Below, one piece after another: positions 5,574 through 17,019 of a stretch of DNA of 17,252 nucleotides. Each line of letters begins with the position of its first letter. Position 1 is the first letter of the stretch. Below the pieces are notes generated by a model, which saw nothing but the letters and a program-made list of their open reading frames with translations, did not search any database and had not been told where the DNA came from. The position numbers and the translations under genes were made by a program. Origin of the DNA: a virus; the UHGV virus genome UHGV-0812067, one strand, 5' to 3'.

Positions 5574-6536
5574 ATGCATCGTATAGACACGAAAACCGCG
5601 CAGAAGGATAAGTTCGGCGCGGGTAAGAACGGTTTTACCCGTGGTAACCCCCAGACCGGCACACCTGCCACCGATCTGGATGATGACTACTTTGACATGT
5701 TGCAGGAAGAACTTTGTAGCGTGGTGGAGGCCTCCGGTGCCAGCCTGGAGAAAGGGCGGCATGACCAGCTGCTTACCGCACTTCGTGCGCTGCTGTTAAG
5801 CCGCAAGAATCCGTTTGGCGATATCAAATCGGACGGCACGGTGGAAACGGCTCTCGAAAACCTTGGTTTGGGAGATGCCAACGGATATGTGGGCCGAAAG
5901 GTTGCGGAAAAATGGATAACGACATCTGGGACATATACGCCTACACCGGGAACAAAAAAAATCAGGGTAACGATAATTGGCGGAGGCGGCGGCGGGGGCA
6001 GTGGGCAAACAAACTCTGCTGGATACGTATCTGCCGGGTCTGGTGGAGGTGCCGGTGGTGTGGCTCGTAAAACAATTGACGTTACCAGTGTTTCATCAGT
6101 GTCCGTAACCATCGGTTCAGGCGGTAATCCAGGTGTCTTCTCTTCAAATCAGCCTGGTGATGGTGGTACCACAAGTTTTGGCTCCTACATGACAGCTGGC
6201 GGGGGTGGCCGAGGAAATAACTGTGGCTCGGTAGCATTCGGTGTTACTCAGTTAATTGCGAACGGTGGCGGCGGGGTTGGTTCAGGAGGTGATATCAACA
6301 CCATCGGCGGCTCTGGCGGCCCGGCGATAATTCTGGGACAGGGGTACACCAGCGGCGGCGGTGGCAACTCAATAGTAGCTGGAGGTGGACAGCCTATTGC
6401 AACAACGTCATCAATGAGTGGAATTGATGGCTCATATGGTTCTGGTGGGTCAGGCGCTTACATTCTGGCCAGCGGTAGTGAAAAAAATGGCGGACGTGGT
6501 GGTGATGGCGTTTGTATCGTTGAGGAGTATGCATAA
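5574..6536 (+). CDS. tail fibre protein, expressed form in this orientation (constant N-terminus + glycine-rich variable C-terminus)
   Basis: ATG at 5574 with GGAG (5563-5566). N-terminus [40 protein letters not shown]... is the conserved phage tail-fibre N-terminal domain. From about residue 98 the protein is extremely Gly/Ser-rich. The inversion crossover site lies inside the gene at 5851-5876. Confidence 0.85.
5851..5876. repeat. invertase crossover site, left (gix/cix/pix/hix-like, 12-2-12 layout)
   Basis: ctctcgaaaacc tt ggtttgggagat: two half-sites resembling the invertase half-site consensus (..TC..AAACC) around a central TT. The 11 bp ttggtttggga (5863-5873) is the exact reverse complement of 7677-7687. 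Confidence 0.7.
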
Positions 6537-6943
6537 TGAATAACATTTATGCTGTTGTTGAAAATGGCGTGGTGATCAACATCGTCGTCTGGGATGGGAA
6601 ATCGGAATGGCAACCGGTAACTGGGGAGGCTGTTTCTTGTTCTGCTCAGGTTGGTATCGGCTGGTTGTATGATGGAAGTAATTTCACCCAGCCACCAACA
6701 CCCGAGCAGACTCCAGAAGAATTAGCAGCGGCAAACATGGCTAAAGCTGCATCTGAGTATGAACGTGCCAGCGTAGTCATTGTAGCGCTAAATGAGCAGA
6801 TCGAAGACGAGGACTACGCAGGGACTACGGAAGAGGCCGTGAAATCAGAATTGGCCGCATGGACTGACTATCGTAAACAGCTTCGCGCTTACATTAAGGC
6901 CGGGGATGGCAGCCAGACACTACCATCCTTTGTAATGATTTAA
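6536..6943 (+). CDS. tail fibre assembly/chaperone-like protein for the current fibre form
   Basis: ATG overlaps the fibre stop (TAATG at 6534-6538) with GAGGAG upstream (6522-6527). C-terminus ...AWTDYRKQLRAYIKA resembles the Tfa C-terminal W-x-x-YR motif. The N-terminal part is not classic Tfa. Confidence 0.55.
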   Translation: MNNIYAVVENGVVINIVVWDGKSEWQPVTGEAVSCSAQVGIGWLYDGSNFTQPPTPEQTPEELAAANMAKAASEYERASVVIVALNEQIEDEDYAGTTEEAVKSELAAWTDYRKQLRAYIKAGDGSQTLPSFVMI

Positions 6944-7323
6944 ACTGGTCGTGTAGGCCACTCTATATCGGGAGCCGTGCTGGTATCAGTTCGCATCACG
7001 GCAACCCGATAATCTTCCCACGAGGTTAATCTAGCAGCTTCTTCATCAGTCGCTATTCCTGCGGTTACTGCATATTGAAGAGGTGATATTGCAAAAGTTG
7101 CTGCCGCCAGCAGCTCTGCTTTTTTCTGATTTGCAATCGCTACTTGCTGATCATGAGTCAGTGGCGCAGGGTCGCTCAGTTCGGGAAAACCACTTTCGTT
7201 TGCAATAATTACCTTTCCTCCCGCCTGCCCAATCACCAATTCTGACCAGTAGTCGTCGGTAATCTCCACCTGGCTATCACTCATCCGCCCAACCGTAAAT
7301 CCAATCTCTGTGGAATAAAACAT
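6940..7323 (-). CDS. tail fibre assembly protein (Tfa), alternative-orientation copy
   Basis: C-terminus ...ATDEEAARLTSWEDYRVAVMRTDTSTAPDIEWPTRPV matches the conserved Tfa C-terminal motif. Its stop codon overlaps the convergent + strand stop within TTTAAA (6940-6943). Confidence 0.8.
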   Translation of the reverse strand: MFYSTEIGFTVGRMSDSQVEITDDYWSELVIGQAGGKVIIANESGFPELSDPAPLTHDQQVAIANQKKAELLAAATFAISPLQYAVTAGIATDEEAARLTSWEDYRVAVMRTDTSTAPDIEWPTRPV

Positions 7324-7685
7324 TACGCACTCCCCATAGCCATATATTTAAAAGAAAAAGATCCGTTCAGATTTGCCCCTGCGGCATCCTTTCCGTAAAT
7401 TGTCACAACCGAACCTGATTCAGGAATGGCGGCATAACTAACAACGCCTGAGCCAATATCAGTCGGGATAAAAGTAAAACCAGTGCTGGGGTAAGCCAAT
7501 GGAAGAGTAAAGCTCAGTACGCCGTTAACAAAATTTCCAGATCCACTGCCCTCCATTATTCTACGGTTTCCTGCAATCACTATTGAAGTAAATACGTTTG
7601 AAGCGCCAGCGTATGTGAAGTTTGACATGTCTGGAATTTGACCAGTTCCTGTACCCACATCTTTTTTGGCTGCTGTTCCCAAACC
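7323..7685 (-). CDS. silent alternative tail-fibre C-terminal segment (Sv'-like), lacks its own N-terminus in this orientation
   Basis: Minus-strand frame is open from the stop at 7692-7694 through the crossover site to TAA at 7323-7325. It reads ...KVGLGTAAKKDVGTGTGQ..., with GLG encoded by the same ggtttggga as NLGLGD in the + fibre, in the same frame. The TTG 'start' in the ORF track is probably not a real start. Confidence 0.65.
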   Translation of the reverse strand, partial: GLGTAAKKDVGTGTGQIPDMSNFTYAGASNVFTSIVIAGNRRIMEGSGSGNFVNGVLSFTLPLAYPSTGFTFIPTDIGSGVVSYAAIPESGSVVTIYGKDAAGANLNGSFSFKYMAMGSA

Positions 7686-7699
7686 AACCTTTCAAATAT
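7674..7699. repeat. invertase crossover site, right
   Basis: tgttcccaaacc aa cctttcaaatat: the left half-site matches the half-site consensus well, the right half is degenerate. It carries the 11-bp inverted repeat tcccaaaccaa (7677-7687). Confidence 0.65.
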
Positions 7700-7758: not shown

Positions 7759-8322
7759 ATGATTTACGGGTATGTTCGTGTATCAACAAATCATCAGGAT
7801 ACAGAGTTGCAACGTCTTGCACTTGAGTCAGCTGGCTGTGAGCGAATTTATGAAGAATATGCCAGTGGCAGAACAGCTAATCGCCCTGTGTTAAAGGAAT
7901 TAATTACGGTGATGAAAAGTGGAGATGAGTTGATTGTCTGGAAGTTAGATCGGATAGGGAGAAATGTGCTGCATGCGCTATTGATGTTTCAAAATCTGCA
8001 CGAAAAAGGTGTTAATTTTCGGAGTATTACAGATGGCGTAGACCTGAAAACAGCAAGTGGTCGCTATAATTTCCGTAATATTCTTTCTGCTGCGCAGTAT
8101 GAATCTGATTTGAATAGCGAGCGAACTTTAGCTGGTTTGGCTATTGCCAGATCCAAAGGCCGGATTGGTGGGCGTAGACCGAAGTTTAGCGACGAGCAGT
8201 GGCAACAGATGGGAGCGCTCATAGCGGCAGGGAAATCACGGCGTTATGTTGCACGTATCTATAACGTTGGGCTATCAACCCTATATAAACGATTTCCTGT
8301 TACTGGCATTCAAACGAAATAA
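7759..8322 (+). CDS. serine DNA invertase (Gin/Cin/Pin/Hin family resolvase-type recombinase)
   Basis: MIYGYVRVSTNHQDTELQ... contains the catalytic Ser motif (YVRVS), VWKLDRIGR, GRIGGRRPK and a C-terminal HTH ...GLSTLYKRFP. It is 187 aa and sits adjacent to the invertible segment. Confidence 0.9.
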   Translation: MIYGYVRVSTNHQDTELQRLALESAGCERIYEEYASGRTANRPVLKELITVMKSGDELIVWKLDRIGRNVLHALLMFQNLHEKGVNFRSITDGVDLKTASGRYNFRNILSAAQYESDLNSERTLAGLAIARSKGRIGGRRPKFSDEQWQQMGALIAAGKSRRYVARIYNVGLSTLYKRFPVTGIQTK

Positions 8323-8465: not shown

Positions 8466-8714
8466 TTAGTGAACAAACCACTCGTCAGCAGATTCCCAGG
8501 TATCTTTCAGAGTCTCCTGAACAAAAGTTTTTGCAGAATCCTTATCTGCGGTGCGTGTAACAGAAAGGCCATCGTTGCTGGTGGCTTTTACGATCACCTC
8601 TACATCGTCATAACGTTTACTGATGCGTCGGGTTAATTCTTCCTTTAACGCATCCACAGCACCGGTTGGCATTTTAGTCATTTTTTCTTTGGCTATGCAG
8701 ATTTCAATACGCAT
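8466..8714 (-). CDS. dinI: DinI-family (DNA damage-inducible protein I-like) protein
   Basis: 82 aa, [11 protein letters not shown]...AVDALKEEL...[11 protein letters not shown], closely resembling the DinI pattern (MRIEVTIAK...ETWESADDWF). SD-like GAGGGA precedes the start; LexA-box-like palindromes lie upstream. Confidence 0.85.
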
Positions 8715-8727
8715 AAAAGTCCCTCTA

Positions 8728-8747
8728 TACTGTGTTTGTATACAGTA
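8728..8747. promoter_or_regulatory. LexA (SOS) box 1
   Basis: TACTGTGTTTGTATACAGTA, a perfect CTGT-N8-ACAG palindrome matching the consensus TACTG(TA)5CAGTA, located 14 bp upstream of the dinI-like start codon. Confidence 0.75.
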
Positions 8748-8755
8748 TTATTTTT

Positions 8756-8775
8756 AACTGTATGGATAAACAGTG
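8756..8775. promoter_or_regulatory. LexA (SOS) box 2
   Basis: AACTGTATGGATAAACAGTG, a second CTGT-N8-ACAG element 8 bp from box 1 and directly abutting the integrase stop codon (8776-8778). Confidence 0.6.
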
Positions 8776-9873
8776 TCAAGGGGTCTTATTTCTGCTCCTT
8801 TGGAGCTCTTCAAAACGATTATGTAAAGATTTCGGATACAGTTCGGTATATACCTGCCATAGCACGTTTAATGAACGATGCCCTGTAACCTGGGCTACTT
8901 CCTCAATACTAAAACCAGCCTCAAATAAGCGACTTGCCCCTTCTCTACGCAAATCATGGTATCGCAGATCCTTAATACCTAATTTGCTTCTTACCCTCTG
9001 AAATCCCGCAGTAACAGAAGTGCTGTTATATGGAAAAATGAATTCCGATTTTTTGGGCTGTCGTTGGACGATATCCCAGGCTTCCCCAAGCAAGGCTACT
9101 TTCATGTGGTTGCCTTCCTTTTTGCGTGGATCTTTCCTGTCTCTTACGAGTATAGATTTTTGTTCCTGGTCGAGATCTTCCCATCGTAACCGGCATACTT
9201 CTCCGATTCGCATACAGGACCACACAGAAAATTTGAGGATATCAACGAACGGAATTTTTGAGCATTTATGAGTAGATCGTTGTTGAAGGCCTTCAATGAG
9301 CATGTCCAGTTCATCAGATGCTGGTCTACGATTACGACGGTTTGATTTACCAATCAAACCAAGTTTAAGTAGATATGGACGAGCACTTTTCGCCGGGTTT
9401 GATGTGTAATTAATTCCGTATACAGGTTTGGCCGCATCCAGAACACTGCCAAGATAACTAACATCGTGGCTGACTGTTGCTGGACCTGCGCCAGCGTTGT
9501 TTCTTAGCCTGCAATGTTCAATTACGTCATTTTCTGTCAGTTCAGATAGTTTGATCGCGGAGATGTCACTATCCATAAGCAGTTCCAGCACATATCTTTT
9601 AGTACGGCCTGCTTTACCTCCGGCATTTGGGTCATTTAAATATTTGTGTAGTAAGTCACGGACTGTAAGTCCGTCAACTGCATTTGATGATGGAATGCCA
9701 TATAGATCTAATTCCATCACTTTCTGTGTGCCCCATGTTTTGGCATGAGCATGTTTAGGGAATGTTTTGCTTTCCCTGTAAGTGATAACACCTTTTTCTT
9801 TGATAATCACATTACAGCGATAGCGTGGTGTGCCATCGGATTTTAGTCGTTTCTCTATGTTATAGTACGCCAT
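8776..9873 (-). CDS. tyrosine site-specific recombinase (phage integrase)
   Basis: 365 aa. The C-terminal catalytic region has the R...HxxR...Y arrangement (...LRYHDLRREGASRL...VTGHRSLNVLWQVYTELYP). GAGG lies 7 nt upstream of the ATG at 9873. Confidence 0.9.
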   Translation of the reverse strand: MAYYNIEKRLKSDGTPRYRCNVIIKEKGVITYRESKTFPKHAHAKTWGTQKVMELDLYGIPSSNAVDGLTVRDLLHKYLNDPNAGGKAGRTKRYVLELLMDSDISAIKLSELTENDVIEHCRLRNNAGAGPATVSHDVSYLGSVLDAAKPVYGINYTSNPAKSARPYLLKLGLIGKSNRRNRRPASDELDMLIEGLQQRSTHKCSKIPFVDILKFSVWSCMRIGEVCRLRWEDLDQEQKSILVRDRKDPRKKEGNHMKVALLGEAWDIVQRQPKKSEFIFPYNSTSVTAGFQRVRSKLGIKDLRYHDLRREGASRLFEAGFSIEEVAQVTGHRSLNVLWQVYTELYPKSLHNRFEELQRSRNKTP

Positions 9874-10319: not shown

Positions 10320-10892
10320 ATGTTTTGCGAAGAAAAAGTAGCTCAAATGGCTGCATACCTACTTCTTAAGAGAGGTGGGCGCATGGCATATCTGAAATTG
10401 ATGAAGCTGCTCTATCTGTCTAACCGCCAGTCGATTTTGAAGCATGGCAGGATGATCGGCGAAGATAGCCTTTACTCTATGAAATTTGGACCAGTCATGT
10501 CGAATACGCTGAACTTGATTCGCGGTAAGGCTGAAGGCATTGGTGACTACTGGTACAACTTGATAGAGACGAACGGGCATAATGTATCGTTGCGTTCAGA
10601 TCCGAGGGAAATGGATGCAGACGAGGTCTTTGATGAATTGAGTCGTGCAGATATCCGGATTTTAGATGAAATCTATTCTCGGTATGGGCATATGAACCGA
10701 TTTGATCTCGCAAATATGACGCATTTAGAAAGCGTTTGTCCAGAGTGGCACGATCCTGGCAATTCTCGTAAGCCTATAGACCTGAAAGAAATGCTGATCA
10801 GTGAGGGTAAAAGCGAGGATGAGGCTAATCGCATAATTGGCAAAATGGAAGAATCTCAGAAACTTAAGGAATTTTCTTTGCAATTATCATGA
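10320..10892 (+). CDS. Panacea-domain (DUF4065, PanA/SocA/GepA-like) protein, putative antitoxin or sensor component
   Basis: ATG at 10320 with GAGG (10308-10311, 8-nt spacer). Residues about 20-70 (...AYLKLMKLLYLSNRQSILKHGRMIGEDSLYSMKFGPVMSNT...) fit the Panacea signature (KLqKLLYL ... w/y-GPV). Coding DNA is low-GC relative to flanking phage genes. Confidence 0.75.
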   Translation: MFCEEKVAQMAAYLLLKRGGRMAYLKLMKLLYLSNRQSILKHGRMIGEDSLYSMKFGPVMSNTLNLIRGKAEGIGDYWYNLIETNGHNVSLRSDPREMDADEVFDELSRADIRILDEIYSRYGHMNRFDLANMTHLESVCPEWHDPGNSRKPIDLKEMLISEGKSEDEANRIIGKMEESQKLKEFSLQLS

Positions 10893-11308
10893 CGGATTAT
10901 CAGCCATACAGGAAAGGAACTGTGCTTGCCCCAACTGGACCATGCAATCATCTTCATGTGATTTGTAATGATCCTGTTTATTACCCCGTTAACGATTGTT
11001 ATTGTGTTTTAGTTGTTAATATTTCTAGTATCAAGGATGGTGTCCCCCACGATCCGTCTTGCGTCTTGAATTCTGGTGATCATCGCTTTATCAAGCATCC
11101 AAGTTATGTTGTTTACGCTGAAGCTATAATTTGGCGAGTGGATAACATGGTTAGAAAGCAGCGATCGGGTGAGATTTCTGTTCATGATGATATGCCAGAA
11201 GCTACATTCAATAGAATTCTGGACGGTTTTGATATCTCTGATGAAGTTACGCCAAAGAACCTTAAATTTAAAAATAAATATTGCGTATCATCTATTGATG
11301 ATGAGTAA
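10889..11308 (+). CDS. hypothetical 139-aa protein translationally coupled to the Panacea-domain gene, candidate toxin/effector
   Basis: ATGA overlap at 10889-10892 with the upstream stop. Protein MTDYQPYRKGTVLAPTGPCNHLHVICNDPVYYPVNDCYC... has Cys/His-rich motifs and I recognise no family. Lowest GC in the window. Confidence 0.65.
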   Translation: MTDYQPYRKGTVLAPTGPCNHLHVICNDPVYYPVNDCYCVLVVNISSIKDGVPHDPSCVLNSGDHRFIKHPSYVVYAEAIIWRVDNMVRKQRSGEISVHDDMPEATFNRILDGFDISDEVTPKNLKFKNKYCVSSIDDE

Positions 11309-14310: not shown

Positions 14311-15228
14311 TTATCGCTTGGCTTCGCCGCCGAGAGAGGTTGTTAATCCGTTAATGAGAGAGATAAGCTCGCCGGTCATCAGAACAAAGTCAGCGTCGAA
14401 CCGCTGAGCCGCATCCTCACGGTCGATATCGTCGTTTTGTTCTGTAATCTCATTAGAGAACTTAAGGCGTTTGATGCTGCCGTCATCGCAAAGAACGAAC
14501 TGAATGCGCTGTTGCCAGTCGATAGACAGCTTTGTAACTACTTTGCCAGCTTCCAGATGCACATGAATTTCGTCACTGACCAGAGTCTGTTTTTTAAAGC
14601 GTCCAATACCGCCATCTTCAAGAATAGCTTTCAGTTCGGCTTCATCACCCAGGCCAAAGCCAGCAGGCGCACTACCGGAACGAACCCATTCGGTCATAGT
14701 TAGTTCGATCGGCGTTTCCATAGTCAGCGGTACCACCGGGAGAGAACCGAGAGTTTTACGAAGCAGGGCCAGTGAGTCTTCGGCACGTTTAGCGCTGGCT
14801 GCATCAACCATGATCAGACCGTCGGTGACGTTGATCCACAAACTAACAGTCGAGTTTTTGGAGAACGCCCGAGGAAGCAGGGAGTGCAACACTTCATCAC
14901 GCAGCGAATCTTTCTCAGTTTTTTTGAGGCGACGCCCCTGATCGGATTCCAGACGCGACACACGCTTGCGCAGTTCTTCAGCAATGACAGGAGATGGCAG
15001 TATTTTTTCTTCCCGGCGAATAACCAACAACACTTGATTATTGACAGTGTGATGCAAGCGATCTGACAGCTGACCAAGTGGTGATACCCAACCGGTTTTT
15101 GCCATATCCTGGCTACCGCATGGAGTGAAGCGAAATAGTTCAAGCTGCTGTTCCAGCTCTTCCTGGTTGATGGTGAAATCGCGACTAATGCGATACACCA
15201 ACATATTTTTGAAAAACGGATTGTTCAT
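14311..15228 (-). CDS. rdgC: RdgC-family recombination-associated protein, phage-encoded homologue
   Basis: 305 aa, [18 protein letters not shown]...[19 protein letters not shown]...KILPSPVI...[22 protein letters not shown]...LGSLPVVPL...RLKF..., collinear with E. coli RdgC along its whole length. Confidence 0.9.
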
Positions 15229-16365: not shown

Positions 16366-17019
16366 TCAAAAATCCATTATTACTTGTTTGACAAGACCAA
16401 CTATTCTGCAGTTCTCACCGCATTCAATAGTTTTATAGTTAGGATTTAGTGGGACGAGATACCTGTTCGGCCAGTCCTCAACAAATTTTTTGAGTGTCGC
16501 TTCTTGCCCACCATTGATATGGGCAACAACGATTTTTCCGTTAATACACTCTGTATCAATAATATCTGGCTCTACGATAACGATAGAACCTTCTGGTATC
16601 GATGGTGAGCCGAGGGGATTGGTCATTGAATCACCACGGACCCGTAGTGCAAATGCCATTTCTGATACAAGGGCGGTAGTATAAACCCACTCTTCAGCAT
16701 CTTCTTTCCTGACACCAGGCTCCGTCATTGTCCATGAACCCGCCTGAACCCACGAGATGAGGGGGACTTTTTTAACTGCGAATATTTCAGGTTTTAGATT
16801 TATCTTTGGTTCAGGCGAGCCTTTTCCGCTAACAAGCCACAGAGGATCGCATTTAAGTGCGTTGGCTAGGGCTTGAAGGTTGGCTCCATTTGGTTGGTAG
16901 TCGTCCTTTTCCCATCCAGTAACCGTGACACGGTTCACACCAGTCAAATCAGCCAGTGCTTGTTGTGTCAGGTTCAGTTCTTTTCGCCTTTGGCGAATAC
17001 GATCACTCATGTTCATCAT
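16366..17019 (-). CDS. CI-like phage repressor (N-terminal HTH + C-terminal LexA/S24-type autocleavage domain)
   Basis: 217 aa. N-terminal HTH (RIRQRRKELNLTQQALADLTGVNRVTVTGWEKD); C-terminal S24 peptidase features (...ALRVRGDSMTNP... with a downstream Lys). No strong SD, as is common for repressor genes. Confidence 0.9.
   Translation of the reverse strand: MMNMSDRIRQRRKELNLTQQALADLTGVNRVTVTGWEKDDYQPNGANLQALANALKCDPLWLVSGKGSPEPKINLKPEIFAVKKVPLISWVQAGSWTMTEPGVRKEDAEEWVYTTALVSEMAFALRVRGDSMTNPLGSPSIPEGSIVIVEPDIIDTECINGKIVVAHINGGQEATLKKFVEDWPNRYLVPLNPNYKTIECGENCRIVGLVKQVIMDF

Follow-up and report, generated by a model that had tools for sequence, protein, structure and literature searches.

We analyzed a 17,252-nucleotide (nt) stretch of UHGV virus genome UHGV-0812067 (here called the window, at its full length) with respect to the glycine-rich C-terminal part of its expressed tail fiber, which is encoded by an open reading frame (ORF) of 320 amino acids (positions 5574 to 6536, plus strand). 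In our reading, to which we assign a probability of about 0.82, this part is a receptor-binding tip with a tumor necrosis factor (TNF)-like plus glycine-rich fold that, together with a dedicated chaperone, forms one cassette of a host-range switch flipped by an invertase. The tip would consist of a TNF-like beta-sandwich with strands that continue into approximately 11 to 12 bundled, conserved glycine-rich motifs, a fold of the Pam3 gp24/Bxb1 gp33/ALK "TG" type (PF21722), with the conserved glycines as the packed scaffold and the hypervariable segments between the motifs most likely as the receptor-contacting surface. The chaperone (chaperone A) would be translationally coupled to the fiber gene and dedicated to this tip, its N-terminal beta domain recognizing the tip type and its C-terminal helices promoting fiber assembly, in the manner of the solved Pam3 gp24-gp25 complex. 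A Pin/Gin-type serine invertase would flip, at LGLG-coding sites, a 1.8-kb segment with two opposed cassettes, one of them made up of this tip and its chaperone, and flipping would switch host range by joining a 97-amino-acid anchor either to the glycine-rich tip, as in the window, or to an alternative tip of 120 amino acids.

The variable C-terminal tip (5865 to 6536, plus strand) starts exactly at the crossover site, and fiber residues 98 to 320 (223 amino acids, 5865 to 6533) contained 68 glycines (30.5%), compared with 9.3% glycine in the N-terminal 97 amino acids and 7.5% in the 13 other proteins of the window pooled (binomial P of approximately 6e-24 for the excess). This enrichment is real and far beyond chance. 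Glycine runs were present at residues 136 to 145, 156 to 162 (SGGGAGG), 209 to 214 (GGGGRG), 230 to 240, and 261 to 266 (GGGGNS), and they included all of the runs that a first-pass annotation, made from the sequence alone, had quoted for a region of about 220 residues past the crossover. The same annotation had described the underlying GGC/GGT-rich DNA as repetitive, and the repetitiveness was not borne out: Tandem Repeats Finder reported no tandem repeat in the tip DNA at a score of ≥30, the glycine codons were mixed (GGC, 24; GGT, 23; GGA, 13; GGG, 8), and the longest perfect trinucleotide run was (GGC)3 at 5985 to 5993. The direct repeats in the tip DNA were short imperfect pairs, such as a 15-nt GGC-rich pair at 5986 to 6000 and 6352 to 6366. 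Separately, an A8 homopolymer at 5954 to 5961 (codons T127-K128-K129-I130), at the start of the glycine-rich domain, was the longest homopolymer of the region.

A Pfam scan of the fiber returned a single family, PF21722 (Gly_rich_2, "Glycine-rich domain"), with a score of 49.9 bits against a cutoff of 24.3; the match covered residues 117 to 317 (5922 to 6524) and model positions 2 to 224 of 226. Several PHROG tail fiber families matched the glycine-rich part as well. A homology search with the fiber yielded 175 proteins, nearly all with PF21722, among them an identical Escherichia coli protein and close homologues in Kluyvera (95 to 97% identity) and Serratia (79%). When 57 diverse members of the tip family were aligned (profile A1), their N termini were unrelated and the C-terminal domain aligned throughout. 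In this alignment, 36 of the 64 domain glycines fell in columns that were at least 80% glycine, column entropy was 1.17 bits at glycine positions and 2.41 bits elsewhere, and the variable columns were grouped between the glycine motifs, with hypervariable segments at approximately amino acids 213 to 229, 250 to 258, 273 to 288, and 295 to 305 of the fiber. Among 117 full-length domain matches, the domain was always located at the extreme C terminus, with a median length of 213 amino acids and a median glycine content of 30%, and it measured 213 to 214 amino acids in the thirteen closest full-length homologues listed (64 to 100% identical over the tip). Differences in poly-G run length among close homologues (G7, G8, and G9) were substitutions and not indels. 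Thus, with a median of 30% and with conserved columns and length, a glycine content of 30% is typical of the family and the number of motifs is conserved. The description of this region as "unusually" glycine-rich therefore does not hold, and neither does the proposed repeat expansion or contraction, with no DNA repeat, a constant domain length in the closest homologues, and conserved glycine positions. Some large proteins (up to approximately 2,600 amino acids; e.g., P0192, P0194, and P0200) carried two to four copies of the domain, showing that the module is used in tandem elsewhere.

The relationship to solved structures emerged only with the family profile. The single fiber sequence searched against the PDB gave a weak match of residues 37 to 104 to the N terminus of Mu S (5YVQ_A; E = 0.098) and no match for the glycine-rich tip, and profile A1 matched the Pam3 tail fiber gp24 (7YPX_A; also 7YFW) over the whole domain with an E value of 8.5e-15 (profile positions 97 to 327 to chain residues 67 to 284). 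Weaker matches were obtained to the Bxb1 gp33 "tail wing brush" and to RemZ. An AlphaFold2 model built on A1 had a predicted local distance difference test (pLDDT) score of approximately 97 for residues 110 to 320, and Foldseek agreed with the profile result, the best structural matches being TNF-like plus glycine-rich-domain proteins. The predicted tip was thus a TNF-like beta-sandwich with an interleaved glycine-rich bundle and not the beta-helix or glycine-rich triple helix for which the first-pass annotation had suggested looking. DSSP left the glycine motifs of the monomer model unassigned, which is compatible with polyproline II (PPII) geometry and is not proof of it; a polyglycine-II backbone and trimeric assembly of the tip would be expected.

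In BFVD, 228 viral models matched at an E value of ≤1e-3, including fibers of Escherichia phage Goslar, Xanthomonas phage FoX6, Achromobacter phage Mano, and Synechococcus phage syn9. A profile search of 1.84 billion cluster representatives retrieved 54,489 proteins at an E value of ≤1e-3 and 8,819 at ≤1e-30; the weakest of these matches may be inflated by composition, which does not apply to the strong ones. A tblastn search of the glycine-rich tip against 50,697 phage records gave no match, to which the low-complexity filter may have contributed, and phage homologues exist according to PHROG and BFVD. NCBIfam had no model for the fiber, chaperone A, its counterpart chaperone B, or the alternative tip. 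The fiber end therefore belongs as a regular member to a very large family of phage receptor-binding tips with solved structures, and the unusual character previously attached to it essentially falls away, the search having found a common, characterized fiber domain with a conserved repeat number. The designation as a receptor-binding region fared better: by homology to Pam3 gp24, the glycine-rich tip is very probably the receptor-binding part of the fiber, a role suggested by its distal position, its allelic diversity, and the proposal made for Pam3.

Chaperone A (135 amino acids; 6536 to 6943, plus strand) starts within the fiber stop codon, with an overlap of one base (TAATG). Its AlphaFold model (pLDDT of 93) showed an N-terminal beta domain (amino acids approximately 3 to 51, YAVVENGVVxN...GIGWxYDG), with strands within residues 3 to 51, and two long C-terminal helices (60 to 90 and 99 to 122). 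This protein, located directly after the fiber gene, thus has the two-domain build of a tail fiber assembly protein, N-terminal beta and C-terminal helical. Its score against Pfam Caudo_TAP (PF02413) was 15.2 bits, below the cutoff of 22.1, and covered residues 56 to 118 only; its homologues were mostly annotated as "hypothetical." A profile of 37 homologues (A2) matched TfaMu (5YVQ_B; E = 4.4e-3), chiefly in the C-terminal half, and residues 4 to 75 at the N terminus of Pam3 gp25 (E = 9.5e-3). For TfaMu, as for Pam3 gp25, a division of labor between an N-terminal domain for the tip and a C-terminal helical domain for assembly has reportedly been proposed. Designer-repeat "Cake" and "Scone" proteins ranked high for chaperone A in the single-sequence PDB search and were rejected as an artifact of summed subthreshold repeats (i-Evalue of >60 for each domain). 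A tblastn search of chaperone A against the same phage records gave one marginal match only.

The A2 alignment showed domain shuffling, in that some members joined the same N domain to a classical Caudo_TAP C terminus and others retained the C-terminal half with a different N domain. The type of N domain followed the type of fiber: a Kosakonia protein with a chaperone A-type N domain was located after a PF21722 fiber, and a Yersinia protein with the same C-terminal half and another N domain, which did not match a hidden Markov model (HMM) of the chaperone A N domain, was located after a Gp53-like_C fiber. The N-domain HMM matched the ORF directly 3' of glycine-rich fibers in Kosakonia, Mesorhizobium, Achromobacter, a metagenomic genome, and, weakly, Pseudomonas; one Serratia glycine-rich fiber had no neighbor of this kind, and the pairing held in 5 of 6 unrelated loci. 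It also matched Pam3 gp25 and did not match chaperone B. The Achromobacter protein consisted of the N domain alone (68 amino acids), and the metagenomic one was fused to DUF4376. In the model proposed for Pam3 gp25, the fiber tip is bound by the N-terminal domain, and assembly is driven by the helical domain at the C terminus (PMC9608196). Since the N domain tracks glycine-rich fibers in other genomes and fits this published model, the idea of a distinct fiber/chaperone pair, which had been raised from the atypical N terminus of chaperone A, is supported. Chaperones cut down to the N-terminal beta domain (60 to 68 amino acids), without the helical half, were observed at some loci (L005, 3430 to 3636; L009, 2463 to 2645; compare phrog_14370, a 63-position profile), from which it follows that the domain that binds the tip can function, or be retained, by itself.

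The fiber gene follows Mu-type baseplate genes (DNA_circ_N, GpP, gp45, gp46, Baseplate_J/gp47, and gp48). Its constant N-terminal anchor (amino acids 1 to 97, ending in ALENLGLG; 5574 to 5864, plus strand) is common to SfV/SfI/e14-type (StfP-like) fibers: over its first approximately 300 nt only, the fiber gene had 95 to 98% nucleotide identity with prophages of E. coli and with phages SfI, SfII, SfIV, and SfV, the range being 95 to 99% with the invertase gene included, and PHROG tail fiber families matched fiber residues 1 to 115. A hix/gix-like left crossover site lies inside the LGLG codons (5858 to 5873, with the 11-nt core TTGGTTTGGGA at 5863 to 5873) and forms an inverted repeat with the right site (7677 to 7692, core TCCCAAACCAA at 7677 to 7687); the two 16-nt sites (repeat I4) were 88% complementary, with identical cores. 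On the minus strand between them are chaperone B (127 amino acids; 6940 to 7323), a classical Caudo_TAP tail fiber assembly protein (PF02413, 110 bits) for the alternative tip, and the alternative fiber C terminus itself (approximately 120 amino acids; 7323 to 7682), which is silent in the present orientation and matched the tail fiber family phrog_36707 (E = 9e-32). This alternative, previously described as of ordinary composition, has 119 to 122 amino acids, 15.6% glycine, and no long glycine runs; a PDB search with it gave no match. Beside the segment is a serine DNA invertase of the Pin/Gin/Cin/Hin type (187 amino acids; 7759 to 8322, plus strand; Pfam Resolvase, 125 bits, and HTH_7, 45.7 bits; phrog_125 DNA invertase, E = 1e-72), the gene for which was approximately 98% identical in nucleotide sequence to E. 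coli prophage invertases. Inversion in silico joined the 97-amino-acid anchor in frame to the alternative tip, giving a fiber of 217 amino acids.

Both orientations were found in public genomes. Loci were collected from contigs encoding an identical chaperone A, and the neighboring genes were translated, so that the two states were observed across E. coli assemblies and not within one culture. On a Mu/SfV-like backbone, one locus (L016) was in the state of the window, with a 100% identical 320-amino-acid fiber, and another (L012, assembly GCA_043181575.1) was flipped, with a 217-amino-acid fiber 98.6% identical to the simulated product and the glycine-rich part remaining as a 215-amino-acid orphan beside the invertase. 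With an adjacent serine invertase, inverted sites at the constant/variable junction, an in-frame alternative fusion, and both orientations present in nature, the cassette lies in a Pin/Gin-type invertible host-range switch of the standard Din type. The same tips were present on a P2-like backbone, defined by Tail_P2_I, a PF12571 fiber N terminus, sheath, and tube, where a 499-amino-acid fiber ended in the identical glycine-rich tip (L020) and 470-amino-acid fibers at five loci (L011, L013, L015, L017, and L018) ended in the alternative tip. A third backbone (Phage_Wedge1, Sheath_initiator) was represented by one locus with the glycine-rich tip (L014) and one with the alternative tip (L019). 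All fiber junctions on the three backbones were located directly after LGLG. Thus, one invertible segment serves three unrelated fiber anchors, in both orientations on each.

The glycine-rich cassette was not found in 5,426 complete E. coli genomes, where the best match had 73% identity over 22% of the query, and the cassette of the alternative tip and chaperone B had no megablast match in the same genomes. The flanking anchor and invertase were approximately 98% identical to many of these genomes, which was not the case for the interior of the segment. The nearest nonidentical tips (95 to 97%) were in Kluyvera, a proximity that suggests a recent intergeneric transfer of the invertible segment. 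Horizontal sharing of fiber segments among relatives of Mu, P1, P2, and e14 is classical. Other glycine-rich alleles, with 58 to 63% overall identity to the fiber of the window, were found behind the same anchor on a complete E. coli chromosome, likewise within an invertible segment (L009), and on a 43.7-kb plasmid (L010). In RefSeq, the uninterrupted fiber ORFs of these two loci (320 amino acids, L009 1501 to 2463, E. coli CFSAN061769, NZ_CP042969.1; 308 amino acids, L010 2113 to 3039, plasmid NZ_CP081704.1) are split by PGAP into a "StfP pseudogene, missing C-terminus" and a separate "glycine-rich domain-containing protein," and the reading frame is continuous in both.

Several other explanations of the glycine-rich stretch were weighed. 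Were it a slippage-prone low-complexity repeat or a flexible linker whose changing copy number varied the fiber, its 30.5% glycine with a G7 run and its short GGC-rich direct repeats would fit, and it is the lack of any tandem repeat or of a perfect triplet run longer than (GGC)3, the length of 213 to 214 amino acids and the poly-G differences by substitution in the closest homologues, the glycine columns being the most conserved ones, and a pLDDT score pointing to a compact fold that make this idea very improbable. We consider a collagen-like triple helix or a beta-helix shaft, in place of a globular tip, slightly less probable again. Beta-helices are frequent in phage fibers, and giant-virus "collagen-like" proteins were among the BFVD structural matches; however, the long (G-X-Y)n periodicity of a collagen-like helix was absent, the longest run being 4 triplets. 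There is next to nothing to recommend the fiber as an enzyme beyond the name "carbohydrate kinase" that NCBI sources give to identical and 95% identical E. coli and Kluyvera proteins (P0001, P0006, and P0007). Neither Pfam nor NCBIfam returned a kinase family, the gene sits after the baseplate genes gp45, gp46, gp47, and gp48 and before a fiber chaperone, the same cluster in UniRef is a "glycine-rich domain-containing protein," and all structural matches were fiber tips; the name is very probably a misannotation.

More weight, with the odds still well against it, was given to the view that the glycine-rich bundle serves as a structural cap, or as a generic "brush" in contact with membrane or lipid, and does not itself determine receptor specificity. 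Hydrophobic patches on Bxb1-type "brush" domains have been discussed as possible contacts with lipid-rich envelopes (PMC13243795), and no receptor is known for any PF21722 fiber examined. However, inversion exchanges no part of the fiber other than the tip, the tip differs strongly between alleles that share an identical anchor, as in the two E. coli alleles described above, and this variation is concentrated between the glycine motifs, as would be expected if the tip determined specificity.

Among known systems, Pam3 gp24 has three domains: a helical anchor precedes a TNF-like sandwich, the strands of which run on into a lattice of four layers containing 12 glycine-rich motifs, and the variable distal tip is proposed to bind the receptor. 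The authors of that work likened it to S16 gp38 and the ALK domain (PMC9608196). Later papers place Pam3, Bxb1 gp33/gp29, and S16 gp38 together as bundles of glycine-rich PPII helices or "brush" domains (PMC13243192, PMC13243795). The tip studied here is homologous to Pam3 gp24 across the whole domain, and chaperone A shares the build of gp25 (PDB 7YPX and 7YFW). However, Pam3 is a cyanomyophage and the present element an enterobacterial Mu/SfV-like prophage with an unrelated N-terminal anchor, an invertase here selects between this tip and an alternative one, and the C-terminal half of chaperone A is of a different sequence type from that of gp25. Bxb1 gp33, the "tail wing brush," and the gp29 tail spike subdomain (PDB 9D93) belong to a siphovirus with a mycobacterial host, gp33 being a tail-tip accessory protein. 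The TNF-like plus glycine-rich (TG) ligand-binding domain of ALK/LTK (PDB 7LIR, 7LS0, 7NX3, and 7LRZ) is part of a metazoan cytokine receptor, with 17 to 24% identity and no functional link. The T-even gp38 adhesin (Salmonella phage S16 gp38, PDB 6F45) is likewise a receptor-binding tip in which conserved glycine-rich motifs alternate with hypervariable segments, but it is a separate small adhesin that caps gp37 and consists of a polyglycine sandwich with no TNF-like domain, a build different from that of this fiber.

The switches Mu G/Gin, P1 C/Cin, and e14 P/Pin have the same layout as the one described here, with a serine invertase beside a segment of two opposed cassettes of variable tip and chaperone, with the crossover likewise inside the fiber gene at the constant/variable junction, and with both orientations occurring naturally. 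Unlike in these Din-family switches, the identical segment is common to three unrelated fiber anchors, and unlike Mu fiber S, the tip belongs to a glycine-rich family that 5YVQ_A did not match. To our knowledge, the classical Mu and P1 tips have not been reported as glycine-rich domains. A literature search returned no papers on PF21722, nor on a glycine-rich domain tail fiber with an invertase. What may be modestly new is that a tip of this family is documented together with an invertase switch, that the segment is present on three prophage backbones, and that the chaperone N domain is a general adaptor for glycine-rich tips. We hold the wider statement only tentatively, with somewhat more doubt than belief: that this is the first described PF21722 polyglycine/TNF-like tip under Din-invertase control, that one segment is set into three unrelated myovirus anchors (Mu/SfV-like, P2 H-like, and Wedge1 type), and that the YAxVxNGxV beta domain of the chaperone is a general adaptor from cyanophages to enterics. 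If true, this beta domain would be a predictable adaptor for pairing fibers and chaperones in engineering. The practical value of the result lies mostly in annotation, since recognition of a Pam3-type tip with a dedicated chaperone leads to correct annotation; it also supplies a rule for matching tips to chaperones, of use in the host-range engineering of phages or tailocins. The locus is one more well-documented case of tail fiber tip exchange among unrelated prophages, and it opens no new question.

Directly after the tail module, the window encodes a tyrosine integrase (8776 to 9873, minus strand), an RdgC-family protein (14311 to 15228, minus strand), and a CI/LexA-like repressor (HTH_3 plus Peptidase_S24; 16366 to 17019, minus strand), and it thus passes directly from late genes to the integrase and to early/immunity genes. 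In the interval that separates the integrase from the early genes, a SocA/Panacea-domain protein (10320 to 10892, plus strand; Pfam, 70.9 bits) overlaps an ORF of 139 amino acids (10889 to 11308, plus strand) without a family match; PADLOC gave no match to either and reported nothing on the neighboring small genes, and the two (10320 to 11308) could form a toxin-antitoxin pair of the Panacea type. The interval from the stop of the integrase to the start of a DinI-family gene (8466 to 8714, minus strand) contained two perfect CTGT-N8-ACAG sites resembling LexA boxes (8730 to 8745 and 8758 to 8773), the only two of the window, compared with 0.23 such sites expected in the window and with 3 of 200 shuffles that reached two; these sites suggest an SOS-regulated prophage dinI.
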